The notes below the pieces were generated by a model. The model was not told the origin of the DNA. It made no database searches and saw only the letters and a list, made by a program, of their open reading frames with translations. Positions 1 to 11,340 of a stretch of DNA of 11,340 nt are shown here, piece after piece; position 1 is the first letter of the stretch; every line of letters begins with the position of its first letter. A program made the translations under genes and the position numbers. The DNA comes from a virus (Duplodnaviria; Heunggongvirae; Uroviricota; Caudoviricetes). The DNA is taken from IMG/VR virus record IMGVR_UViG_3300029647_000018; one strand, 5' to 3'.

Positions 1-77
1 AAAAACGGTTCTGTGAAAGTGACACGAACCGATCTCCATCGATGTTACTCACCGATCTCCTTCACGGTAATACGCAC
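1..77. repeat. Left copy of a perfect inverted repeat (exact reverse complement of 11256..11332); begins at window base 1, so true length may exceed 77 bp
   Basis: Direct comparison: reverse complement of 11256..11332 equals 1..77 base for base; identity breaks at 78 versus 11255. Contains two 10-bp direct repeats ACCGATCTCC (28..37, 51..60) around an ATCGAT palindrome (38..43). Confidence 0.95.
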
Positions 78-319
78 TTATGGCAGTGAATGAAATACGC
101 ATCGCGGATAACAGCGCGTTTTGTCGCTTCCGGCCACTTATCATCCCAGCGGTCAACCGAAAATGACCACGCCAGCCACGGCAGCAGATTTGCCGGACAG
201 GTATCCGGGTTCCACAGCTCACGAATACTGACCGGCGTTTTTTCAATTTCCGCACAGGCTTTTGCGGCGGCGACTTCAAGCGGTGATGAGCCGGTCGGCA
301 GCAGTCGCGAATCACTCAT
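62..319 (-). pseudogene. I: Truncated baseplate protein gpI-like: about 81 native residues then CVLP-stop supplied by the inverted repeat (P2 gpI is about 176 aa)
   Basis: ORF starts MSDSRLLPTGSSPLEV..., matching my recollection of the P2 gpI N-terminus; ATG at 317..319 overlaps J stop (312..314). The last 4 codons and the stop (62..76) lie inside repeat 1..77. Immediately downstream of J as in P2. Confidence 0.8.
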
Positions 320-1220
320 CCGAGCCTCCCGTCACGACGCGGTATTCAGTACAGAAAGACGCCTGCGTATTGTTGAGCACGATGTCGGCCAGTGGTGCGG
401 CCAGCTCGACACGCTGCACGCCTTCCACATGCAAAGCGGCATAAATGGCAGACAGACGGATGTCGCGCCCCAGCCGGTGCTGTGCCGTGATGTACGCTTC
501 CAGTTTTTTCACGGCAGCAGCGCGGATGGGTTCGCTTTCGGGGCCAGGGTAAAGGTAAAGCGTGGCATTTATCTGGTATTCAACAATGGCGGCAGACTGC
601 ACGGTCACGCGGTCGGCCACCGGCCTGACGTCCTCGCCATTAAGGGCGTTACGCACCACAGCCAGCAGGTCTTCGGATGCGACGCCGTTATTTTCACGTG
701 ACAGCACAGAGATAGTAACGCAGGCCGGAGACGGACTGGTGACAGAAATATCGGCGACACGCCCGTCAGCACTGCGACCATGATACTGATAGGCACCCAC
801 CGACCCGGCGACGCTTAAACCTTCAAACGCCTGCTGAATACGCAACCGATAATCGGTGTCAGATTCCATCACTGCCGGTGTCGGCGGGATGGTCGAATCG
901 TCTGCCGGGGTGATAGTCAGGCGCGTGGTGTTGTAATTGGCACCAATCACATCAAGGTCATTACCGGCGGCACAGGCCAGCATCACCGCCCGTGCGGCCT
1001 CATTCACACGCTGACGCCAGATAAGCTCACGATAAGCATTTTCCTCCAGCAGCTTGACGAGAGGCTCGGATTCCAGCGTCAGGGTACGGGCGACCGCCTC
1101 CTGCTGGTCTTCCGGGTAAAGGGAAATCAGTGTCGCCTTGCGTTCGGCGAGAATGGTTTCAAAGTCCAGCTCCTCGACCACATCCGGTGCGGGTAGCTGG
1201 TTCAGGTCGATAATCGGCAT
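312..1220 (-). CDS. J: Baseplate assembly protein gpJ (baseplate wedge), 302 aa
   Basis: 302-aa ORF MPIIDLNQLPAPDVVEELDFE..., same length as P2 gpJ; position between W and I as in P2. Confidence 0.92.
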   Translation of the reverse strand: MPIIDLNQLPAPDVVEELDFETILAERKATLISLYPEDQQEAVARTLTLESEPLVKLLEENAYRELIWRQRVNEAARAVMLACAAGNDLDVIGANYNTTRLTITPADDSTIPPTPAVMESDTDYRLRIQQAFEGLSVAGSVGAYQYHGRSADGRVADISVTSPSPACVTISVLSRENNGVASEDLLAVVRNALNGEDVRPVADRVTVQSAAIVEYQINATLYLYPGPESEPIRAAAVKKLEAYITAQHRLGRDIRLSAIYAALHVEGVQRVELAAPLADIVLNNTQASFCTEYRVVTGGSDE

Positions 1221-1224
1221 GGTT

Positions 1225-1572
1225 TCAACTCACAGGGATGGTTAACGAAAGTGGCTGGCCGGTGTCGTTGTGCTGGCCGGTTAACGTGACCGTCATTCGC
1301 CCGTCAAAACTGCGCGCCGTAGTGACGGATGACAGGGTGACGCGGGGTTCCCATTTCAGCACCGCCATGTAACAGGCGACCTTAATCTGCAACTCAAGCG
1401 CCTGGGTCTGCGGCTGGTCAATCATTGATGCCAGCAACGAGCCGTAATCACGACGCATCACCCGTGAGCCGACCGGTGTGCGCAGGATATCGCCGATACT
1501 CTGGCTGATATGCTCAAGGTCAGTGACAGTCAGGCCATCACTGCGATTCATTCCGAGATAACGTGCTGTCAT
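1225..1572 (-). CDS. W: Baseplate protein gpW (gp25-like), 115 aa
   Basis: 115-aa ORF, same length as P2 gpW; start overlaps V stop as ATGA (1569..1572); flanked by V and J. Confidence 0.9.
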   Translation of the reverse strand: MTARYLGMNRSDGLTVTDLEHISQSIGDILRTPVGSRVMRRDYGSLLASMIDQPQTQALELQIKVACYMAVLKWEPRVTLSSVTTARSFDGRMTVTLTGQHNDTGQPLSLTIPVS

Positions 1573-2204
1573 AGAGGACTCCCGGTTGTGCCGCCGCTGT
1601 CTCCTGGGTGTTTGTGGGTATGCAGTACCTTACCGTTTGATGAGAGTTCACCGCCGGTGTGTTCAATGTTGCCGCGCATCGTCCCGCCCTTCTGCACTTC
1701 CAGCGTGCCGGTAATCAGCCTGTTGGTGCAGACCACCTCCGGTGTGTCCAGGGTGACGCGGGTTGATGCTTTCACCATGACCACCGGCACCGTGGCAGTA
1801 ACAGAATCAGAAGCCGTCACGCTGACCGTTTTAATTCCGCTTACCGTGAGTGCACTGGTTTCGGGTTCATATTCAATCACCGCTCCGTCAGGGAAACGGA
1901 TATGCAGGGCATCCGCCGACGCAGACGGCGCGGGGTTATCGCCGGAATAAATCCCCGGCAGAACGAACGCCGTGTCGAGTTCACCGCCCACGGCCAGAAT
2001 CAGCACCTGCTCCCCCACGGAAGGTGCCCACCATGTGCGCGAACGACCGGCACGATGGGTCAGCCACTGAAGCCAGTCAGTGCACATGCCGCCGGTCTGC
2101 ACACGGCAGCGACCGGCGTTAAGGTCGGTTTCGACGACAAGGCCGGTGCGGATCATGTTGCGCAGTGCGCGCGCGAGTTCCTGAATATTTGCGAGAGTGT
2201 TCAT
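1569..2204 (-). CDS. V: Baseplate spike/hub protein gpV, 211 aa
   Basis: 211-aa ORF MNTLANIQELARALRNMIRTG..., same length as P2 gpV; first gene after the S-V intergenic gap. Confidence 0.92.
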   Translation of the reverse strand: MNTLANIQELARALRNMIRTGLVVETDLNAGRCRVQTGGMCTDWLQWLTHRAGRSRTWWAPSVGEQVLILAVGGELDTAFVLPGIYSGDNPAPSASADALHIRFPDGAVIEYEPETSALTVSGIKTVSVTASDSVTATVPVVMVKASTRVTLDTPEVVCTNRLITGTLEVQKGGTMRGNIEHTGGELSSNGKVLHTHKHPGDSGGTTGSPL

Positions 2205-2270
2205 AACGGGAAGGATGCCGCCGGGTCATACCGGCGGCAATGTGACGATGAGGTGTCGGGAATGGCACAA
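2205..2270 (-). promoter_or_regulatory. S-V intergenic region; expected location of the Ogr-dependent late promoter for the V-W-J-I operon; contains a GC-rich hairpin (2217..2238)
   Basis: P2 has a late promoter upstream of V (established knowledge). In the sequence I see only a 66-bp gap and the dyad GCCGCCGG-gtcata-CCGGCGGC; no exact TGT-N12-ACA element found (nearest is TGT-N10-ACA at 2254..2269). Confidence 0.3.
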
Positions 2271-2723
2271 CTAACGGTCGAGGTGAGCCAGGATAATCTC
2301 TTCAATCATCTGCACATCCTCACCGGTAAAGCCGAGCAGAGGACGCGCCGGATAATCAATTTTCTTACCGTCTTTCCGGGTTTCTTCCGACAGACCGAAC
2401 TGATGCACGCTGGCGATTTTCGGTGACTTCCCGCCGTAAAATTCCATTGATGCCTGTTCAGGGCTGGCGCGGATATGCAAAAAACGACTGGTGATAAGTT
2501 TCGCAAACATTTTTCGCTTAACGCGACCGGTCTTTTTTCTGGCGCTCTGCTGCTGACGTGGCGCGTAGGGTGTGCCGTCCGGGGCTTTCTGAGCCATCAC
2601 CCGGCGCTGCTGACTCTGCCGCAGACGTTTCGCCAGTTCGGCACTCAGTCGCCGACGCCCTGACGGTGACAGCGATTCAGTCAGTCCGGCCAGCCGGTCT
2701 TCAAAACGCTTAAACTCATTCAT
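2271..2723 (-). CDS. S: Tail completion protein gpS, 150 aa
   Basis: 150-aa ORF, same length as P2 gpS; start (2721..2723) overlaps R stop (2716..2718). Confidence 0.9.
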   Translation of the reverse strand: MNEFKRFEDRLAGLTESLSPSGRRRLSAELAKRLRQSQQRRVMAQKAPDGTPYAPRQQQSARKKTGRVKRKMFAKLITSRFLHIRASPEQASMEFYGGKSPKIASVHQFGLSEETRKDGKKIDYPARPLLGFTGEDVQMIEEIILAHLDR

Positions 2724-3186
2724 CCCACTTGCTCACCAGTTCGCCATTGATATAAAGCTCCATCGGGCGGGTGACCGGCTCCGGCGGCGGGGGTTCCGGA
2801 ATATTCTTCACATGCAGTGCGCCGTCAACCTCACTGACCAGCGTGCGCTCGGTCAGCATCAGGCTGATGCTGATATCAAAGCTGCTGTCATTGTTGATGT
2901 CTGCATAAAACGTGAAGCCCTTTTTCTGGCCTTCGTCGGTGGTCATGATGTCGGGCTGATTTTCCCGCAGCCACGCCAGCACCGGCACGATGAGCAGGTC
3001 AAAATCACCGGTAAAGTCGGTCACAATGACATTGAGCGTGTAACGCTTTTCGAATGACAGCGACGCCGCCAGTGTGGAGGCAATACTCCCGTTATCCACG
3101 AATATCCGCAGCATCTCTGGACTGGTTTTCAACACCGTGACGGCATCAGTCAGCGCCCTGCGCAGGCTGTCGGGTTTGAGCATCAT
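2716..3186 (-). CDS. R: Tail completion protein gpR (155-156 aa; start may be the second ATG at 3181..3183)
   Basis: ORF MMLKPDSLRRALTDAV...; P2 gpR is 155 aa; tandem ATG ATG at 3181..3186. Confidence 0.88.
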   Translation of the reverse strand: MMLKPDSLRRALTDAVTVLKTSPEMLRIFVDNGSIASTLAASLSFEKRYTLNVIVTDFTGDFDLLIVPVLAWLRENQPDIMTTDEGQKKGFTFYADINNDSSFDISISLMLTERTLVSEVDGALHVKNIPEPPPPEPVTRPMELYINGELVSKWDE

Positions 3187-3436
3187 TTTCGTCCTGACAG
3201 TGTTTAATCATTTTTACCTGGCTGGCACAGCGTGCCAGCGCGTCCTCAAGCTGCCGGATATCGGCACTTAAATCGCCGTTCTTCTGCGGGTCACTGCCCG
3301 GCATCGGGCAAAGACTCACTTTCGGGCAGGCGTTGTGGACAATCACTGGCGTCGGTGCAGGCGGGGCGCTGGTGCAACCGGCGCACAGCATCAGGCAGGT
3401 CAGCACCGTACCAGCGGCGAAAATCCTCGTTTTCAT
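3146..3436 (-). CDS. lysC: LysC, Rz1-like outer-membrane lipoprotein spanin (o-spanin), 96 aa, nested out of frame in lysB and running into R
   Basis: Internal ATG at 3434..3436 in an alternative frame of lysB gives MKTRIFAAGTVLTCLMLCAGCTSAPPAPTP...: signal-peptide-like segment with Cys-containing lipobox-like motif and a Pro-rich stretch. 96 aa equals the P2 LysC size. Confidence 0.75.
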   Translation of the reverse strand: MKTRIFAAGTVLTCLMLCAGCTSAPPAPTPVIVHNACPKVSLCPMPGSDPQKNGDLSADIRQLEDALARCASQVKMIKHCQDENDAQTRQPAQGAD

Positions 3437-3716
3437 TAAGTAACCTCGTGATGGTTTTCTCGCGCTGTGCTTCACGCTTCGCAGCGTTCTCCAGCTCCTG
3501 ACGCAGAGCCACCTGCGCCAGCTCGTTTTTGTCTGCTCTGGTGAGCGCAACATGAAGCTGATTTTTCAGCATGGTGATGGTCGTCTGCTGTTCACTGGCG
3601 ACGTTGTTCGCCCTGTCCAGCGAGGCGCGCAGGCTGGCATTTTTATGTTTCACCAGAAACAGACCGGCCACCGCCAGCGATAACAACACGACCAGCACAG
3701 TCATCAGCTTTGACAT
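3291..3716 (-). CDS. lysB: LysB, Rz-like inner-membrane spanin (i-spanin), 141 aa
   Basis: 141-aa ORF with N-terminal hydrophobic anchor MSKLMTVLVVLLSLAVAGLFLV followed by a charged, coiled-coil-like region; same size as P2 LysB. Confidence 0.88.
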   Translation of the reverse strand: MSKLMTVLVVLLSLAVAGLFLVKHKNASLRASLDRANNVASEQQTTITMLKNQLHVALTRADKNELAQVALRQELENAAKREAQREKTITRLLNENEDFRRWYGADLPDAVRRLHQRPACTDASDCPQRLPESESLPDAGQ

Positions 3717-4129
3717 GGTTCCCGCCCCTCAAAACGCTGACGGCAGGCCGTACGTATCAGCCGGAAGAACAGCGACGCCACGAGATAAATCAGCGCGGTA
3801 AAAATCCACCCGGCAGCGACCAGCGAGATAAACGTCGTCACCATCACCACCAGAGCCGCCGCCCGTCTGCGCCACGGCACCGGCTGCAAAAACAGCGACG
3901 CGACAATCTTCACGGCCAGCGATTCCGGCGGCAGCTCCCGCCCGTAGCGTTCCAGCACATACTCCGTGGTATACACGCCGACACCACCGGCAACCACACA
4001 GATAACCGTCGCCAGAATCGCCCAGGCGGCGACAAAATTGACGGCCACGCTCTGCGGGTAAATCAGGGACAGTGCCAGCATCAGCGCCAGCGACACGTTC
4101 AGCATCAGTGAAAGGGATAATTTCTTCAT
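3704..4129 (-). CDS. lysA: LysA, multi-pass membrane lysis-timing protein, 141 aa
   Basis: 141-aa ORF with 3-4 hydrophobic helices; position between K and lysB; P2 LysA is 141 aa; GGAG 9 nt upstream of ATG. Confidence 0.85.
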   Translation of the reverse strand: MKKLSLSLMLNVSLALMLALSLIYPQSVAVNFVAAWAILATVICVVAGGVGVYTTEYVLERYGRELPPESLAVKIVASLFLQPVPWRRRAAALVVMVTTFISLVAAGWIFTALIYLVASLFFRLIRTACRQRFEGREPCQS

Positions 4130-4143
4130 GGTGTTTACTCCGT

Positions 4144-4641
4144 TTAAGCCGGTACGCCGCCAGCGGTACGCCAGACGGTGACCAGTTTTTCCAGTGAATG
4201 CTCACGCTGACCGTAACCGGCTCCCGGCAGGGACGCCCAGATATTGCGACAGCGTGAAATGGCGCGCTCAATGCGTCCCGCCCGGATGTCATCCAGTGCA
4301 CCGCGTTCGCGGATCAACTGAATGGCAAGTCTGTCCTGTGACAACGGACTGAAATCCGGCAGGGCAAGCTGTTTGCGGTAATGCGGCCAGAACAGGTAAA
4401 GCTGCTGATAGCGACCGGAGGCCGTGGATTTTTCACCGCGACGGTTAAACACCTTCGCCGGTCGGCCATGCGCGAACGGGTGGTCACTGTAGTCAGTGAA
4501 AATTTCCGGCTTCCCGTCCAGTCCGGTGACTATCACGTCATAGCCCCGGTTTTTCGTCAGCGGATGATTCGCCGTCCCTTCGGACACGGCCAGCATGTCG
4601 AGAAAGGCCGCGATATTCTGATGCGTGTTAATTACCGGCAT
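4144..4641 (-). CDS. K: Endolysin gpK (lysozyme-like), 165 aa
   Basis: 165-aa ORF MPVINTHQNIAAFLDMLAVSEGT... with lysozyme-like E...D...T N-terminal motif; start overlaps Y stop (TAATG at 4639..4643). Confidence 0.9.
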   Translation of the reverse strand: MPVINTHQNIAAFLDMLAVSEGTANHPLTKNRGYDVIVTGLDGKPEIFTDYSDHPFAHGRPAKVFNRRGEKSTASGRYQQLYLFWPHYRKQLALPDFSPLSQDRLAIQLIRERGALDDIRAGRIERAISRCRNIWASLPGAGYGQREHSLEKLVTVWRTAGGVPA

Positions 4642-4922
4642 TACGGTTTCCCCCTGCCCTTAAAACGGCGCTGAATGGCAATCTCAATCACCTGATAACC
4701 GGCGATACCCAGCATGGAGCCGATACCGCACACCGCAGGCAGTGACAGGTCAGGAAACTGCACCAGAACAACACCGGCAACCATCGAGACAAAACCACCG
4801 AGCAACATGCGCCCGATAAACAGACGCGGGGTGATGGGTTCACCACCGGCAAGCACCTTGCCGACAACAATCAGCACCCCAATCATGAAAAGCGACAGGA
4901 CGCTTTTTTCTTCTGCTGTCAT
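4641..4922 (-). CDS. Y: Holin gpY, 93 aa
   Basis: 93-aa ORF with hydrophobic transmembrane segments and charged C-terminus; directly upstream of the endolysin; same size as P2 gpY. Confidence 0.9.
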   Translation of the reverse strand: MTAEEKSVLSLFMIGVLIVVGKVLAGGEPITPRLFIGRMLLGGFVSMVAGVVLVQFPDLSLPAVCGIGSMLGIAGYQVIEIAIQRRFKGRGKP

Positions 4923-4925
4923 GCG

Positions 4926-5129
4926 TTACTCCCACAGATTGACAGTTTCAGCCACGGGCGCGGCCTGAACGTCGGGCAGTTCGACGGCGGTGCCGTGTGG
5001 CAGCACCGCACCCAGTTCAGCCAGTCCCGGATTTGCGGCGAGCACGGTCTCAACCACGCCCTCAGTGCGCCCGTAATACCGGACACAAATGGCGTCGAGC
5101 GTGTCGCCCTGTAGCGCAAAGGTCTTCAT
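4926..5129 (-). CDS. X: Tail protein gpX (small LysM-like protein), 67 aa
   Basis: Internal start MKTFALQGDTLDAICVRYYG... gives 67 aa (P2 gpX size); ATG (5127..5129) overlaps L stop (5129..5131) as ATGA. The track's 90-aa version is an upstream extension. Confidence 0.85.
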   Translation of the reverse strand: MKTFALQGDTLDAICVRYYGRTEGVVETVLAANPGLAELGAVLPHGTAVELPDVQAAPVAETVNLWE

Positions 5130-5638
5130 CAGATTTGACTCACGATGCAGCGCGGCTTGTCCTGGATACGCGCCACCGCCCAGCGCATATCCCGCCACAG
5201 TTCATCAATGGTGCTGTCAATGCTGTCAGCCTTCTTGTCACCTTTCGCACTGGCATCCACGCCGCGATAACGCTCATAAAGCGACGCGGTCGCCATCGCA
5301 CACACGGCGCGCTCGTAGTAAAAAACTTTGATGCTTTCACCGTCGATGTCGTCCGCCGGGACGTCCGCCAGACGCGTAAAACCGGCAGTAATTTTCTGTT
5401 CGCGGTACTCGTACAGCTCCGCATTCGTTTCAGCCATGCCTGACTTGATGGCCTCACGCAGACGGGCGGGGGCGACGGTCTGCTCAAGGCGCATACGTTC
5501 CCGGACGCGCTTCGGGTCGATATCGGGAAAAAAGAACGTGTTTTTAATCACCGGCTCGTCGCCTGCCGGTTGCGGGATGACCACCGTACCCTCACCGGAC
5601 ACGGGAGCCTCCTTTCGCGGAATAATCAGCGTCATCAT
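5129..5638 (-). CDS. L: Head completion/stabilisation protein gpL, 169 aa
   Basis: Start at tandem MM (5633..5638) preceded by GAGGTGG gives 169 aa (P2 gpL size), MMTLIIPRKEAPVSGEG...; the 189-aa track ORF is an upstream extension. Confidence 0.88.
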   Translation of the reverse strand: MMTLIIPRKEAPVSGEGTVVIPQPAGDEPVIKNTFFFPDIDPKRVRERMRLEQTVAPARLREAIKSGMAETNAELYEYREQKITAGFTRLADVPADDIDGESIKVFYYERAVCAMATASLYERYRGVDASAKGDKKADSIDSTIDELWRDMRWAVARIQDKPRCIVSQI

Positions 5639-5737
5639 GACCACCTCTGAAAAGTCGGGCGGTGGACGCCGGTGCAGTGTCAGATGATTCACCCTCACTG
5701 ACCGGCGTGCCGCCCTGGCGCGGGGCGCATTCGGTTG

Positions 5738-6481
5738 TTAACTGGCTTTCTTTTTCGGGCGTCCACGTTTTGCCGGTGTCACGCTCCGGGTCTTACGCGG
5801 GGCGCGGGTGGCCGCTTTGGGTTGTGGCTCCGGCTTCGGTTTCAGCTCCCGCTCCAGTCGTTCAATCTCTTTTTTGACGCCTGCCTGACAGTCGAGCTGT
5901 GTCGCACGTTGCAGGTGCGCCAGTGCACCTGCGGCATCACCAGCGTCACGCAGAAACAGACCGGTGATTTTGTGCAGCTTTGCGCGCACTTCATCAGGCA
6001 TGTCAGCCGTGGCGGTCAGTTCAAGGGTGTCCGTCAGCAGGCGGGTATCCACGGATTCACCGGCAGCGTGAGCGCGCATGGCCGCGAGCGCGACCTCCTC
6101 GGTGAACATGTACGGCGGGGTGCGGCGGTGTTTACCCGGCATGGTCAGACCGTACTTCAGGGCATAACGGGCAATCTCCAGCGCACCGGCAATATCGCCG
6201 GTATCCAGACGCCACAGCATGACCGTCATCAGAATGTCATCCTGTGCACCTTTGCCCTGCTCCAGCACGCCGTTCACCCACGGCAACCAGAACGGCAACA
6301 GTTCGCGTTTTTTCGCGGCCTTAAGCTCTTTTGAATAAATCGCTTTCAGTGTGCGCTGGTCTGCGGCCAGCTTGACCAGCATCTGCTCATAGACAGTTGC
6401 ATGTCGCAGCGGGGCGGCTTCCCGCTGCGCGGTCATCGCTGCCGAGACCCGCATCATGTGGCGCTGTGCGGGACTCGTCAT
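5738..6481 (-). CDS. M: Terminase endonuclease (small) subunit gpM, 247 aa
   Basis: 247-aa ORF (P2 gpM size) with a very basic C-terminal tail ...TPAKRGRPKKKAS; immediately downstream of N with a 3-nt spacer. Confidence 0.9.
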   Translation of the reverse strand: MTSPAQRHMMRVSAAMTAQREAAPLRHATVYEQMLVKLAADQRTLKAIYSKELKAAKKRELLPFWLPWVNGVLEQGKGAQDDILMTVMLWRLDTGDIAGALEIARYALKYGLTMPGKHRRTPPYMFTEEVALAAMRAHAAGESVDTRLLTDTLELTATADMPDEVRAKLHKITGLFLRDAGDAAGALAHLQRATQLDCQAGVKKEIERLERELKPKPEPQPKAATRAPRKTRSVTPAKRGRPKKKAS

Positions 6482-6484
6482 CGG

Positions 6485-7558
6485 TTACGCTCCCGGCTCT
6501 GCGGTCGCCTTAGCAGGTGTGGAGAAATCACCGACCTTAATTTTTTCCACCAGACAACCGGCTGCGTAGTCTTCCACTACGTAATCAATGTTCATTGACT
6601 CGTAGTTCTCCACGCGGTCGAGTTTCGGGTTTTCCACAATCACGCGGCGATGGCTGTCATCCATGTAGTAGATGGACAGGTTTTCCAGCTTCGTGATGAG
6701 CATCGCATCCGCCGGGAAGTACGGGACGCGTACCGCTGGCAGGTTGCCGATGCGTTTCTGGCTGATGATGACGTCAGCGGCCAGCATCTCGCTGTTGTCC
6801 TGCTCCTTGTTGACGATGGGGAAATACTTGTCCGCCAGTAGCTGACGCCCCACAATCACCACAAGGTCAGGGTCTTCCTGATACCACGGTTCAATCAGGT
6901 TGTTGGTCGCATCCATCACCAGTGCATCAAGGCTGGCATAATCACCGCCCTTACCCACGCGGATAACCTCAGAGGTGGTGCGGCCTTCCTCGTCAGTGAC
7001 CTTGCTCATCACGCGCGCCGGGGCTTCATTGCGGTATTTCTGCAGCCAGCCGACCGCCACATCCTGCAGCATCGGATTGCTGTTGCGGTCAGAGGTTTCG
7101 GCACGCTTCACGCCGTTAAAACCGGCCATGATGAAATCAAGGGACTGGCGTTTGATAATGGCGTTACGGATACGGAGCTGGAAATCCTGATAACGCGCCC
7201 ACAGGTCAAGCGTTTTGTAGCGGATATAAAAATCGAAGTTAATCTGGTCGCATTCGTACTTACTGGACGCCAGCTTCGAGAAGTCCTTCGGCTGACGCTC
7301 GGTGCCACCGGCGGTGTCGGTGGTGCTGGCGATGGAGCCGGTGACACCGATACCAATTTTTTCCCCTTTCATTTCGCTGACCGGCACAATGTTGATGCGG
7401 GTCAGGAAATCAGAGGACTCCTGCATGGTGTTCATCAGGGTCTGGGTGACCGACGGTTCAACGGTGAATTTTTTCGACACATCACCGGCGTCGATGCCGT
7501 TCAGTTCGGCAACACGGGACAGGTAAGCATTAAATTTAAAGCGGGTTTCCTGGCGCAT
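6485..7558 (-). CDS. N: Major capsid protein gpN, 357 aa
   Basis: 357-aa ORF MRQETRFKFNAYLSRVAELNGI..., same length as P2 gpN; AGGA 7 nt upstream of ATG. Confidence 0.95.
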   Translation of the reverse strand: MRQETRFKFNAYLSRVAELNGIDAGDVSKKFTVEPSVTQTLMNTMQESSDFLTRINIVPVSEMKGEKIGIGVTGSIASTTDTAGGTERQPKDFSKLASSKYECDQINFDFYIRYKTLDLWARYQDFQLRIRNAIIKRQSLDFIMAGFNGVKRAETSDRNSNPMLQDVAVGWLQKYRNEAPARVMSKVTDEEGRTTSEVIRVGKGGDYASLDALVMDATNNLIEPWYQEDPDLVVIVGRQLLADKYFPIVNKEQDNSEMLAADVIISQKRIGNLPAVRVPYFPADAMLITKLENLSIYYMDDSHRRVIVENPKLDRVENYESMNIDYVVEDYAAGCLVEKIKVGDFSTPAKATAEPGA

Positions 7559-7616
7559 AGTTTTTCCTGAAATTAAGTGTTAATCGTGAAGGTTTTCCCG
7601 GACTGACTGACGCCGA

Positions 7617-8471
7617 TCAGCAGTTCGTCATCAGGGCGTCACCGCCACCGCCGGTGGCCTTGCTGCGGCGCTGCTGGGTCAGACTTTCGGTGTGGTCGAG
7701 ACTGTTTTTCAGGCGGGTGAATGCCTGGCTGGTTTCATCCGCCCTGTCAGTCACATCCTGCTTAAGTGCGGAAAAGGCGTTTTCCATCTCAGCGAGGCGC
7801 TGCTCAGTGGCGCTCAGTTTTTCCTGCACATGTTCAGCAACAGCGGTCACCGCTTCATGCACGTCATTCAGACGGGCGTCATCGCTGGCCTGTTTGCGGC
7901 CAAAAATGGATTTCACCTTTTCGGTCAGGGCGGTGAACACGGTTTCAGGCAGGTCTTCAAATTCCAGCTCAACGGGCGTTGCCACTGAAATCAGATTTTC
8001 AGGGCTTAATTTGAAGCGGTTCAGAGGGTTGTGTTTTGCCGTGCGGCAGAATTCCAGGTATTCCGTGCCGAGGCTTGCCGGGTCATCGGTGACGGCCAGC
8101 CCCACCAGATAACATTTGCCGGTGTTGGCAAAGTTCGGCTGAATTTCCATTGAGGTGTAGACCTTCTGCGCGGCCTTGTTCATCGCGATAAGGTCATCGG
8201 TCGGGGTGATTTTCGCAAACAGCGCCCATTTGCCTTTCAGCGCCGAATCATCGTCAATCTTTTCAGCCTTCAGTTCGACCACATCGCCATAACGCTTAAA
8301 AATACCGTCAGGCAGGATGCCGCGCAGATGTTCCAGGTTAATGCGGCAACCATAGACACGCGGGTCAAAGGTTTCGGCCATTTCCTGAATATCCTGCGCA
8401 CTGATGACACGCCCGTCACAGGTGTCACCCTCAACGCCGATACGAAAGAATTTTGAGACTTTTTTTGCCAT
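7617..8471 (-). CDS. O: Capsid scaffolding protein gpO with N-terminal serine protease domain, 284 aa
   Basis: Start at MAKKVSKFFRIGVEGDT... (ATG 8469..8471) gives 284 aa (P2 gpO size). Residues D19, H48 and S107 are present at the positions I recall as the P2 gpO catalytic triad. Confidence 0.9.
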   Translation of the reverse strand: MAKKVSKFFRIGVEGDTCDGRVISAQDIQEMAETFDPRVYGCRINLEHLRGILPDGIFKRYGDVVELKAEKIDDDSALKGKWALFAKITPTDDLIAMNKAAQKVYTSMEIQPNFANTGKCYLVGLAVTDDPASLGTEYLEFCRTAKHNPLNRFKLSPENLISVATPVELEFEDLPETVFTALTEKVKSIFGRKQASDDARLNDVHEAVTAVAEHVQEKLSATEQRLAEMENAFSALKQDVTDRADETSQAFTRLKNSLDHTESLTQQRRSKATGGGGDALMTNC

Positions 8472-8644
8472 TGTCAGGAGTCCTGAATAGTGATTAGAGG
8501 AGTCACATGTCGGCATCAGTTTCCCGACGATGCGCATCCTCCGCCATCAGTCCCGGATGGCTTATCACTGACACAACAGCACCTTAGCGAATCGCGGGGC
8601 GCGACTCAGTAGCCTTGCCGTGTATTCATCACGGCGAGGTATTC
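8472..8644. promoter_or_regulatory. Divergent O/P intergenic region; expected site of the two divergent Ogr-dependent late promoters
   Basis: 173-bp non-coding gap between divergent operons, as in P2. Seen in sequence: imperfect dyad TGG-N12-ACA (8558..8575), direct repeat CATCAGT (8514..8520, 8545..8551), small hairpin 8509..8528. Exact promoter elements not verified. Confidence 0.5.
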
Positions 8645-10417
8645 ATGACCATCACCACAGACACCACTCTTTTGCACGACCCGCGTCGTCAGGCGGCGCT
8701 GCTGTACTGGCAGGGGTTTTCCGTGCCGCAGATTGCCGCCATGTTGCAGATGAAACGCCCGACGGTGCAGAGCTGGAAACAGCGCGACGGCTGGGACAGC
8801 GTTGCCCCCATCAGCCGTGTCGAAATGAGTCTGGAAGCGCGGCTGACCCAGCTCATTATCAAACCGCAGAAAACCGGCGGTGACTTCAAGGAAATTGACC
8901 TGCTCGGACGCCAGATTGAACGACTGGCACGGGTAAACCGCTACAGCCAGACCGGCAACGAGGCAGACCTTAATCCGAACGTCGCTAACCGCAACAAAGG
9001 CGGGCGTCGCAAACCGAAAAAGAATTTTTTCAGTGACGAGGCTATCGAAAAGCTGGAGCAGATTTTCTTTGAGCAGTCTTTCGACTATCAGTTGCACTGG
9101 TATCGCGCCGGGCTTGAGCACCGCATCCGCGATATCCTGAAATCCCGCCAGATTGGCGCGACGTTTTATTTTTCCCGCGAGGCGCTGCTGCGCGCCCTGA
9201 AAACAGGTCATAACCAGATTTTTCTGTCGGCCAGTAAAACGCAGGCGTATGTATTCCGTGAATACATCATCGCCTTTGCCCGTCTGGTTGACGTTGACCT
9301 GACCGGTGACCCGATTGTCCTGGGCAATAACGGCGCAAAACTGATTTTTCTCGGCACCAACTCCAACACCGCGCAGAGCCATAACGGCGACCTGTACGTC
9401 GATGAGATTTTCTGGATCCCGAATTTTCAGGTACTGCGTAAGGTGGCATCAGGTATGGCCTCACAGAGTCACCTGCGCTCGACCTATTTCTCCACCCCGT
9501 CCACGCTGGCGCACGACGCCTATCCGTTCTGGTCCGGTGAACTGTTTAACCGGGGACGCGCCAGCGCCGCCGAACGCGTGGAAATCGACGTCAGTCATAA
9601 CGCCCTTGCCGGTGGGCTTCTCTGTGCGGACGGCCAGTGGCGGCAGATTGTCACCATTGAGGACGCCCTGAAAGGTGGCTGCACGCTGTTCGACATTGAG
9701 CAGCTCAAACGCGAAAACAGCGCCGACGATTTTAAAAACCTGTTCATGTGTGAATTTGTTGACGACAAGGCGTCGGTGTTCCCGTTCGAGGAGCTGCAAC
9801 GCTGCATGGTCGACACGCTGGAAGAATGGGAAGACTATGCGCCGTTTGCCACCAATCCGTTCGGCTCACGTCCGGTATGGATTGGTTACGACCCGTCACA
9901 CCGTGGCGACAGCGCCGGATGCGTGGTACTGGCACCGCCGGTGGTGGCCGGTGGCAAATTCAGAATACTTGAGCGTCACCAGTGGAAAGGCATGGACTTT
10001 GCCACCCAGGCGGAATCCATCCGCAAACTCACCGAAAAATATAACGTTGAATACATCGGGATTGATGCCACCGGCCTCGGTGTCGGCGTGTTCCAGCTCG
10101 TGCGCTCGTTCTATCCCGCCGCGCGCGATATCCGCTACACGCCGGAAATGAAAACCGCAATGGTGCTCAAGGCAAAAGACGTCATCCGCCGTGGCTGTCT
10201 GGAATATGACGTCAGCGCCACCGACATCACCAGCTCGTTTATGGCTATCCGCAAGACCATGACCAGCAGCGGACGCAGCGCCACCTATGAGGCCAGCCGC
10301 AGCGAGGAAGCCAGCCACGCCGACCTCGCCTGGGCGACCATGCACGCCCTGTTAAATGAGCCACTCACCGCCGGTATCAGCACTCCGCTGACATCCACCA
10401 TTCTGGAGTTTTACTGA
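8645..10417 (+). CDS. P: Terminase ATPase (large) subunit gpP, 590 aa
   Basis: Start MTITTDTTLLHDPRRQAALLYWQGF... (ATG 8645, GAGGT upstream) gives 590 aa (P2 gpP size); candidate Walker A-like FLSASKT and Walker B-like LYVDE motifs; stop overlaps Q start (TGATG 10415..10419). Confidence 0.93.
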   Translation: MTITTDTTLLHDPRRQAALLYWQGFSVPQIAAMLQMKRPTVQSWKQRDGWDSVAPISRVEMSLEARLTQLIIKPQKTGGDFKEIDLLGRQIERLARVNRYSQTGNEADLNPNVANRNKGGRRKPKKNFFSDEAIEKLEQIFFEQSFDYQLHWYRAGLEHRIRDILKSRQIGATFYFSREALLRALKTGHNQIFLSASKTQAYVFREYIIAFARLVDVDLTGDPIVLGNNGAKLIFLGTNSNTAQSHNGDLYVDEIFWIPNFQVLRKVASGMASQSHLRSTYFSTPSTLAHDAYPFWSGELFNRGRASAAERVEIDVSHNALAGGLLCADGQWRQIVTIEDALKGGCTLFDIEQLKRENSADDFKNLFMCEFVDDKASVFPFEELQRCMVDTLEEWEDYAPFATNPFGSRPVWIGYDPSHRGDSAGCVVLAPPVVAGGKFRILERHQWKGMDFATQAESIRKLTEKYNVEYIGIDATGLGVGVFQLVRSFYPAARDIRYTPEMKTAMVLKAKDVIRRGCLEYDVSATDITSSFMAIRKTMTSSGRSATYEASRSEEASHADLAWATMHALLNEPLTAGISTPLTSTILEFY

Positions 10418-11271
10418 TGAGCAAGAAAAAAGGGAAAACACCGCAACCTGCGGCAAAAACAATCACCGCCAGCGCCCCGAAAATGGAGGCATTCACCTTT
10501 GGTGAGCCGGTGCCGGTACTCGACCGCCGTGACATTCTGGATTACGTCGAGTGCATCAGTAACGGCAGATGGTATGAGCCACCGGTCAGCTTTACCGGTC
10601 TGGCAAAAAGCCTGCGTGCTGCCGTACATCACAGCTCACCGATTTACGTCAAACGTAATATTCTGGCTTCAACGTTTATTCCGCACCCGTGGCTTTCCCA
10701 GCAGGATTTCAGCCGCTTTGTGCTGGATTTTCTGGTGTTCGGTAATGCGTTTCTGGAAAAGCGCTACAGCACCACCGGTAAGGTCATCAGACTGGAAACC
10801 TCACCGGCAAAATATACCCGCCGTGGTGTTGAGGAGGATGTTTACTGGTGGGTGCCGTCCTTCAACGAGCCGACACCTTTCGCGCCCGGCTCCGTGTTTC
10901 ACCTGCTGGAGCCGGATATTAATCAGGAGCTGTACGGCCTGCCGGAATATCTCAGCGCCCTTAATTCTGCCTGGCTGAATGAATCAGCTACGCTGTTCCG
11001 CCGCAAGTATTACGAAAATGGCGCACATGCCGGATACATCATGTACGTCACCGATGCCGTGCAGGATCGCAACGATATCGAAATGCTTCGCGAAAACATG
11101 GTTAAGTCGAAAGGCCGCAACAACTTTAAAAACCTGTTTCTCTATGCCCCGCAGGGGAAAGCTGACGGCATTAAAATTATCCCACTCAGTGAAGTGGCAA
11201 CGAAGGACGATTTTTTTAATATCAAAAAAGCCAGCGCCGCTGACCTGCTGGACGCGTGCGTATTACCGTGA
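10417..11271 (+). pseudogene. Q: Truncated portal protein gpQ-like: about 280 native residues then CVLP-stop from the inverted repeat (P2 gpQ is about 344 aa)
   Basis: ORF MSKKKGKTPQPAAKTITASAPKMEAF... matches my recollection of the P2 portal N-terminus; the reading frame enters repeat 11256..11332 and stops at 11269..11271. Confidence 0.8.
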
Positions 11272-11332
11272 AGGAGATCGGTGAGTAACATCGATGGAGA
11301 TCGGTTCGTGTCACTTTCACAGAACCGTTTTT
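11256..11332. repeat. Right copy of the perfect inverted repeat (reverse complement of 1..77)
   Basis: Exact 77/77 reverse-complement identity with 1..77; 8 further bases (11333..11340, aaattacc) have no counterpart inside the window because the left copy starts at base 1. Confidence 0.95.
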
Positions 11333-11340
11333 AAATTACC

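Follow-up and report, generated by a model that had tools for sequence, protein, structure and literature searches.

A P2-like late-gene block flanked by two inverted ISEc12 ends in the baseplate gene I and the portal gene Q

We analyzed a stretch of viral DNA of 11,340 nucleotides (the window). It carries P2-sized genes in the collinear order Q-P / O-N-M-L-X-Y-K-lysA-lysB(lysC)-R-S-V-W-J-I, which is that of a P2-like late-gene module, and at each end a piece of the insertion sequence ISEc12. The features are as follows.

1-76, plus strand: left ISEc12 end, IstB-proximal (IRR), last 76 nt; reverse complement of 11257-11332; the junction runs on into istB and istA in the sister genome
62-319, minus strand: truncated baseplate gene I' (81 of 203 gpI codons, 4 IS-encoded codons (CVLP) and a stop)
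77-81, minus strand: target-site duplication copy of the I insertion (ATAAG on the minus strand); second ATAAG at the IRL end (sister genome, k127_49585)
312-1220, minus strand: J, baseplate, intact; length as in P2 and L-413C
1225-1572, minus strand: W, baseplate, intact; length as in P2 and L-413C
1569-2204, minus strand: V, baseplate, intact; length as in P2 and L-413C
2271-2723, minus strand: S, tail completion, intact
2716-3183, minus strand: R, tail completion, intact
3146-3436, minus strand: lysC, intact; open throughout, 96 aa
3291-3716, minus strand: lysB, intact; 96.5% identity to P2
3704-4129, minus strand: lysA, intact; 94.4% identity to P2
4144-4641, minus strand: endolysin K, intact; 100% identity to P2
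4641-4922, minus strand: holin Y, intact; 98.9% identity to P2
4926-5129, minus strand: X, head/packaging group, intact
5129-5638, minus strand: L, head/packaging group, intact
5738-6481, minus strand: M, head/packaging group, intact
6485-7558, minus strand: N, head/packaging group, intact
7617-8471, minus strand: O, head/packaging group, intact
8472-8644, no strand assigned: divergent late promoter region PP/PO with Ogr activator binding site; 173 of 173 nt identical to P2 2994-3166
8645-10417, plus strand: P, large terminase, 590 aa, intact; 99.8% aa identity to P2
10417-11271, plus strand: truncated portal gene Q' (280 of 344 codons, then CVLP and a stop from the IS end)
11252-11256, plus strand: target-site duplication copy of the Q insertion (ACGCG); second ACGCG after the IRL end in k127_12368
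11257-11340, minus strand: right ISEc12 end, last 84 nt (IRR), inverted relative to the left copy; 84 of 84 nt identical to annotated ISEc12

Positions 77 to 11256 match P2-like phages at approximately 97.8% without gaps (11.18 kb, Peduovirus genomes), and the homology to P2 breaks off exactly at the IS junction at each end. The 15 genes J, W, V, S, R, lysB, lysA, K, Y, X, L, M, N, O and P are each exactly as long as their counterparts in P2 and L-413C. They contain no internal stops or frameshifts, and their products are 94.4-100% identical to those of P2 (97-99% for J, W and V, again with no internal stops). An earlier interpretation made from the sequence alone (the sequence-only reading) had described every gene from J through P as P2-like in length and free of frameshifts and internal stops, and this was borne out for the 15 genes and lysC (94-100% aa identity). 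The dN/dS comparison that it had proposed gave 0.07 for the internal genes relative to P2 and 0.08 relative to L-413C; a value of about 0.07 indicates purifying selection relative to live phages. The Pfam families Baseplate_J, GPW_gp25 and Phage_base_V, and the expected families for every other product, match the products of a contig that is 100% identical to this block. The exact P protein was found in 914 index blocks of a public assembly collection, and the exact J protein in 2,949.

The gene order I-J-W-V-S-R-lysC/B/A-K-Y-X-L-M-N-O / P-Q is common to P2, L-413C, pro483, S164, fiAA91-ss and the prophage analyzed here, and these Peduovirus relatives share with it identical gene lengths, approximately 97.6-97.8% DNA identity and an identical PP/PO control region. 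The O-P intergenic region, with 100% identity to P2, spans the annotated activator site (3057-3087 in P2 coordinates). Judged by this identity, PP and PO are probably Ogr/Delta-dependent divergent late promoters, and an Ogr_Delta gene is present on an adjoining contig. Like L-413C, the prophage lacks an orf30-type gene in the S-V interval, and its I gene is of the 203-aa type. It differs from P2 in that I and Q are each cut by ISEc12.

The sequence-only reading was also correct that the window holds no intact portal gene or baseplate end gene (Q has 280 of 344 codons and I has 81 of 203, both ending in CVLP and a stop), and no sheath, tube, tape-measure, fibre, int or ogr gene. The cause of the truncations is evident from the window ends. 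Bases 1-76 and 11257-11340 match the IstB-proximal end of annotated ISEc12, an element of the IS21 family, at 100% identity; the 84 of 84 matching nucleotides are those of copies labelled 'IS21-like element ISEc12 family', of which the window contains only the last 76 and 84 nt. The body of the left copy (istA, istB) extends leftward out of the window, and the istB stop codon of the right copy starts 2 nt beyond the window end. The window has a 77-nt perfect terminal inverted repeat because both of its ends are the same end of inverted ISEc12 copies. Crossover sites of a Hin/Gin-type invertible segment were considered for this repeat and dropped, given that it is an IS end. The two ends differ neither from each other nor from the common ISEc12 sequence. 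Among 5,426 complete E. coli genomes, 1,748 carry ISEc12, and its end was counted 4,908 times in the set.

What lies beyond the two IS ends could be read from two sources. The first, a sister genome (GCA_054792675.1), came up in a look-up of the exact V protein, and differs from window positions 1-11256 by a single mismatch. Its I junction is identical to that of the window and continues into a full-length ISEc12 of 2,581 bp (istB, 248 aa; istA, 513 aa) with a perfect ATAAG duplication. Removal of the IS gives back a 203-aa I, and H, G, the invertase gene, FI, FII and E follow directly beyond it. This genome has only the one IS, with Q intact and the prophage in its native order.

The second source is the gut metagenome sample ERZ918399, in which contig k127_14615 is the one with 100% identity to the window block. 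Two further contigs of this sample carry the far junctions: k127_49585 has the IRL end, ATAAG, the remainder of I ('I), H, G, FI, FII, E, T, U, D and ogr, and k127_12368 has the IRL end, ACGCG, the remainder of Q ('Q), IetAS, A, B and cox. Excising the IS with one copy of the duplication yields a 203-aa I that equals the uninterrupted I of locus L037, and joining Q' to its far-side remnant yields a 344-aa Q identical to that of the sister genome. All three contigs stop exactly 126 nt (k-1) inside the IS. The window ends where it does because short-read assemblies break at IS elements that are present in several identical copies. The 1,964 bases past cox on k127_12368 leave room for C and int as in relatives, and these two genes presumably follow. 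Fusion ORFs predicted at the far junctions from the 5-bp duplication, MKIRN joined to 'Q (70 aa) or to 'I (128 aa), were found exactly in public data. In scans of IMG/VR viral contigs, no predicted far junctions (IRL end with the rest of I or Q) were recovered, and a look-up of IetS matched relatives and not the prophage's own lineage.

Each insertion is thus flanked by its own 5-bp direct duplication, as in a simple insertion: ATAAG/ATAAG in I (sister genome and k127_49585) and ACGCG/ACGCG in Q (window and k127_12368). Target duplication of 5 bp by ISEc12 is on record (PMC10711316). In that case, ISEc12 in tssM of E. coli ST131 clade C, the insertion likewise made a 5-bp duplication and knocked out one gene of a contractile-tail-like machine whose other genes are intact, and it was likewise recognised via junction sequences in short-read assemblies (PMC10711316). 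The present case differs from the tssM case in that the target is a prophage and that there are two insertions, in inverted orientation (PMC10711316).

The window is very probably the central 11.18 kb (the middle third) of a full-length E. coli P2-like (Peduovirus) prophage, lying between two recent, independent and inverted 2,581-bp ISEc12 insertions in I and Q, with the rest of the prophage beyond each; the context comes from the 100%-identical contig, its sample-mates and the sister genome. One ISEc12 would have entered I after codon 81 and the other Q after codon 280, each producing its own 5-bp target duplication. Beyond the left IS would lie the rest of I, H, G, an invertible fibre segment with its invertase, FI, FII, E, T, U, D and ogr, and beyond the right IS the rest of Q, IetAS as defence cargo, A, B and cox, with C and int presumed next. 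P2 has neither the invertible fibre segment and invertase nor IetAS, which takes the old/tin position in this prophage. The prophage is neither a remnant nor artificial; it is an ordinary case. The block appears incomplete because of where the window stops. The premise of the sequence-only reading that the block is incomplete is thereby overturned: the repeat is native sequence, the end of an IS, and the missing genes are contiguous just beyond both IS copies (sister genome; sample with the identical block). Of the P2-like genes for which it had suggested a genome-wide search, H, G, FI, FII, E, T, U, D, ogr, A, B and cox were found, and C and int are presumed. Its suggestion that the disruption is recent, with no decay yet, is correct, as judged by the identical IS ends, the perfect duplications and the sister genome, in which Q is intact and 1 of 11,256 bases differs. 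The internal genes are probably pristine because nothing has befallen them; the prophage would have been functional until very recently.

In the public assembly collection, 27 index blocks list the I junction, and a 5.15-Mb NCBI contig is among its carriers. The Q junction (Q') is on 5 contigs, and the 'Q remnant likewise on 5 contigs. Among complete E. coli genomes in RefSeq, none has the I junction in one piece, and only BCE-1 and STE15 have an IS end joined directly to this part of Q; the source lineage is therefore absent from this set. BCE-1 is an independent genome, with a simple insertion of ISEc12 in Q 1 bp away and the remainder of Q after it. The identical I junction was also seen in a prophage whose background has diverged by 2.5%. 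In complete genomes, ISEc12 occupies at least 9 different positions within or close to the portal gene, and other insertions are in H and O. Together with the independent Q insertion 1 bp off, these observations hint at a regional preference of ISEc12.

The native order of the segments may have been altered since the insertions. Two identical 2.6-kb inverted copies 11 kb apart are a classical substrate for homologous recombination, which could have flipped the 11.2-kb block so that I' faces the Q remnant and Q' the I remnant, and because every short-read contig ends k-1 bases into the IS, the two orders look alike. We consider such a flip unlikely: there is no positive evidence for it, and the sister genome with one IS is in native order. 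It would also leave the gene content and the conclusion on the finding unchanged.

It is very improbable that the block is truly isolated in the source of the window, either as a relocated composite transposon (ISEc12-block-ISEc12) or as a leftover after IS-mediated deletion of its flanks. A DNA segment enclosed by an inverted IS pair is built like a composite transposon, and transposons of the Tn10/Tn5 type are likewise bracketed by inverted copies of one IS. In addition, one Logan contig (L007) passes from I' across the IS and ends in 30 nt of unrelated sequence. However, unlike in Tn10/Tn5, each IS here sits inside a prophage gene between two matching copies of its own 5-bp duplication, which shows two separate insertions in situ rather than movement as a unit, and genes I and Q of this prophage carry on outside the IS pair. 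The block was therefore neither assembled nor moved as a transposon. The far junctions and the remaining prophage genes were found in the identical block's own sample, Q' and 'Q were recovered on equal numbers of contigs, and the 30-nt tail of L007 equals k-1 at k = 31, so that its simplest explanation is an assembly path across a repeat with many copies.

Assembly artefacts can give a sequence of contig size perfect terminal inverted repeats such as these of 77 nt, and the sequence-only reading had raised the option of an artificial block, but a construct or chimera is hardly credible for a repeat that is a real and common IS end, with the expected duplication partners present for both junctions and the junctions recurring in many independent public assemblies. 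Deletion-type cryptic P2 remnants and other decayed prophages resemble the present one in that it, too, is P2-like and probably no longer able to make virions. We also rejected a decayed or deleted remnant of this kind: tail, regulatory and replication genes lie across the IS copies and, in contrast to decayed remnants, nothing is deleted or decayed, the genes seen are full length and the defect consists of two clean insertions.

A regional preference of ISEc12 for P2-like late regions, with repeated hits that disarm virions and spare the lysis cassette and IetAS as a recurrent route of domestication, is a doubtful proposition. Among 60 ISEc12 ends sampled across complete genomes, none of the listed places was in a P2-like gene, and the sampled sites include lom, psiA, hok, traX and ypfH. 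Exclusive targeting of P2 genes is not borne out by this sample, and no target consensus was found among the collected insertion sites.

The result is mainly a clean-up, in that an odd and possibly artificial half-prophage becomes a normal P2-like prophage with two IS insertions, seen via contig breaks. IS-fusion ORFs of this kind (those ending in CVLP and those starting with MKIRN) are already in public databases as fragments of "phage tail protein I" and "portal protein". Where genes are truncated at both ends of a contig that share a common inverted repeat, the ends should be compared with IS ends before a biological reading is made.

For the host, if the prophage were derepressed, it could still switch on the Ogr-dependent late operons. 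The cell would then be expected to lyse, because the O operon, with the holin, endolysin and spanin genes, is intact. Infectious virions would not be expected to form, because both the portal and gpI are absent and the IS probably exerts polarity on H and G. The proposal that the lysis cassette could be relevant to the host holds as an inference: the cassette, the PO promoter region and ogr are intact. The prophage of this strain probably makes no particles, and keeps an intact Ogr-controlled lysis cassette and the IetAS defence system.

The window covers the central part of an otherwise complete ~34-kb prophage that has been hit twice by ISEc12, an IS21-family element carrying istA and istB. 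The genes in the window are listed below; I' and Q' are the truncated baseplate gene I and portal gene Q at its two ends.

Minus strand, window gene run: I', J, W, V, S, R, lysC/lysB/lysA, K, Y, X, L, M, N, O
Plus strand, adjoining the minus-strand run: P, Q'

Positions 77-11256 gave one gap-free match, at 97.5-97.8% identity, to P2-like phages (S164, pro483, L-413C, fiAA91-ss and others). The sequence-only reading had described the internal genes as intact, and this was borne out when they were compared gene by gene with those of annotated P2 and L-413C. From J to P, each of the 15 genes matches its reference counterpart exactly in length and has no internal stop, and their products are 94.4-100% identical in amino acid sequence to those of P2. 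lysC is open throughout (96 aa), and the 173-nt O-P intergenic region, which contains an Ogr binding site, is identical to that of P2. Over 9.6 kb of concatenated coding sequence there were 192.5 synonymous versus 44.5 non-synonymous differences, and the dN/dS comparison that the earlier reading had proposed gave 0.07 against P2 and 0.08 against L-413C. The gap between V and S (2205-2270) is a 66-nt spacer with a GC-rich hairpin (GCCGCCGG...CCGGCGGC) and no orf30-type gene. L-413C has the same spacer, likewise without such a gene, whereas four relatives (loci L015, L016, L021 and L023) carry various genes of 246-261 aa at this spot.

Homology to P2 breaks off at 76/77 and 11256/11257. At the two ends of the window lies a perfect inverted repeat of 77 nt (1-77 and 11256-11332), made up of 76 nt of ISEc12 end and one base that matches by chance. 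In all, the window holds 76 nt of the left IS copy and 84 nt of the right copy, and its right end falls 1 nt short of the istB stop codon. These outer stretches of 76 and 84 nt match with 100% identity a sequence that 1,748 of 5,426 complete E. coli genomes carry, in 4,908 copies altogether, and that is found on plasmids too. Because this sequence, in annotated records, is the span from the IS end to the istB stop codon of an "IS21-like element ISEc12", both window ends are the IstB-proximal end of ISEc12, facing inward, and the two copies are mutually inverted.

Gene I is interrupted after codon 81 and gene Q after codon 280. Because the two insertions share a codon phase, I' and Q' have a common ending, each running into IS-encoded CVLP and then a stop (62-76 and 11257-11271). 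We predicted the far junctions by assuming a 5-bp duplication. At both, the ATG of the opposite IS end is in frame with the gene remnant, giving fusions of MKIRN with the rest of Q (70 aa) and with the rest of I (128 aa). The exact sequences of both fusions were found in public collections, including the following contigs.

k127_12368, 114-326: fusion ORF, MKIRN + rest of Q
k127_49585, 114-500: fusion ORF, MKIRN + rest of I

Look-up of the fusion proteins led to a k=127 assembly of a human gut metagenome (ENA ERZ918399), in which contig k127_14615 is 100% identical to the window block. Another two contigs of this assembly make up the rest of the prophage, as follows.

k127_49585 (10,713 bp): 126 nt of the opposite IS end, ATAAG, rest of I, H, G, invertible segment, FI, FII, E, T, U, D, ogr
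k127_12368 (12,290 bp): 126 nt of the opposite IS end, ACGCG, rest of Q, two-gene cargo, A (replication), B region, cox

The four junction-proximal contig ends each lie exactly k-1 = 126 nt inside the IS, which is the signature of de Bruijn assembly breaking at a repeat, and joining the pieces restored full-length Q and I. The 1,964 unread bases beyond cox are the right room for C and int, judged from relatives, and both are presumed to follow there in this lineage. On the terms that the earlier reading had itself set, the premise of an incomplete block fails, since the missing genes are contiguous, immediately beyond the window ends, and the terminal repeat is native sequence. A remnant, a composite transposon and an artificial block were all rejected; genes for the tail, regulation and replication were found beyond the two IS copies.

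A sister genome (GCA_054792675.1, a 5.15-Mb contig) has one mismatch to window 1-11256, at position 8265. Its I junction is identical to that of the window, and its Q is intact (344 aa). The ISEc12 in I is 2,581 bp long, with a perfect ATAAG duplication on both sides, and deleting it together with one duplication copy gives a 203-aa I that is the same as the intact I in a relative. Immediately past the IS come H and a fibre assembly gene, then an inverted alternative fibre segment with its Hin/Gin-type invertase, the sheath and tube genes, and E. In the independent genome of strain BCE-1 (L003, 20150-22800), ISEc12 lies in Q in the same orientation, only 1 bp away from where it sits in the window. 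This simple insertion has the duplication CGCGC (ACGCG in the window) and is followed by the remainder of Q. Both insertions in the window are recent, because neither duplication contains a mismatch and the visible parts of the two IS copies differ neither from one another nor from the common sequence. Homologous recombination between the two inverted copies could have flipped the block, to whose orientation short reads are blind.

The invertible tail-fibre segment beyond the left IS (L044 1635-3812 in k127_49585; L038 16218-18395 in the sister genome) comprises, on the opposite strand, an alternative fibre C-terminus and an assembly gene, together with a 197-aa resolvase/invertase. Unlike this prophage, P2 has no such segment. 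Beyond the right IS, the two-gene cargo occupies the old/tin position of P2; it is an intact anti-phage defence pair, IetA/IetS (IetAS) (L043 774-4180 in k127_12368; also L020 13255-16661 in the sister genome; PADLOC E-values 9e-132 and 1e-273).

The I insertion is more widespread than the Q insertion, since 27 index blocks of a public assembly collection list its fusion protein and it is present, with Q uninterrupted, in the sister genome, while the Q insertion was found in 5 contigs only. IS-fusion ORFs have been deposited publicly as 'phage tail protein I' (e.g. CAM2755047.1) and as portal fragments. An identical I::ISEc12 junction is present in another P2-like prophage (ENA ERZ10551857 k141_2741, 1-2075), which has 50 differences from window 1-2033 (2,033 bases), starting 120 nt from the junction. 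This could be either an independent insertion at the same base, as at a preferred site, or recombination after insertion. In a Logan contig (ERR13961122), I' is followed by a whole ISEc12 and 30 nt of unrelated sequence (2938-2967), with the matching duplication absent. Since this tail is k-1 long for k=31, it most probably reflects the assembly graph running on into another copy of the IS, not a rearrangement.

This prophage family has been hit by ISEc12 repeatedly, with insertions in H (S7, L030) and O (L029) and a disrupted O-P region (L024), and complete genomes have at least nine different ISEc12 positions in or near the portal gene. Any preference for P2-like genes is unproven and is not exclusive, because none of a spread sample of 60 ISEc12 ends lay in P2-like genes. 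A miniature (MITE-like) derivative of 114 bp, comprising the two ends only, lies in psiA on plasmid pM217_FII (NZ_AP018147.1; about 3501-3614 of L002) with its own 5-bp duplication, ACCGG. ISEc12 has also knocked out tssM in ST131 clade C, with a 5-bp duplication (PMC10711316); there, likewise, one gene is hit and the contractile machine is otherwise intact. Prophages interrupted by IS elements are commonplace.

The O operon runs from O to S and includes holin Y, endolysin K, lysA, lysB and lysC. Because this operon and its promoter are intact and ogr is present, late gene expression and lysis are predicted to be still possible. The insertion in Q costs the portal its last 64 residues, and DNA-filled heads are accordingly not expected. 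The IS in I removes 122 of 203 residues and is predicted to be polar on H and G (V operon), so a complete baseplate or fibres are not expected. The prophage should be lethal on induction yet non-infectious; its IetAS pair is intact, and it probably produces no virions.
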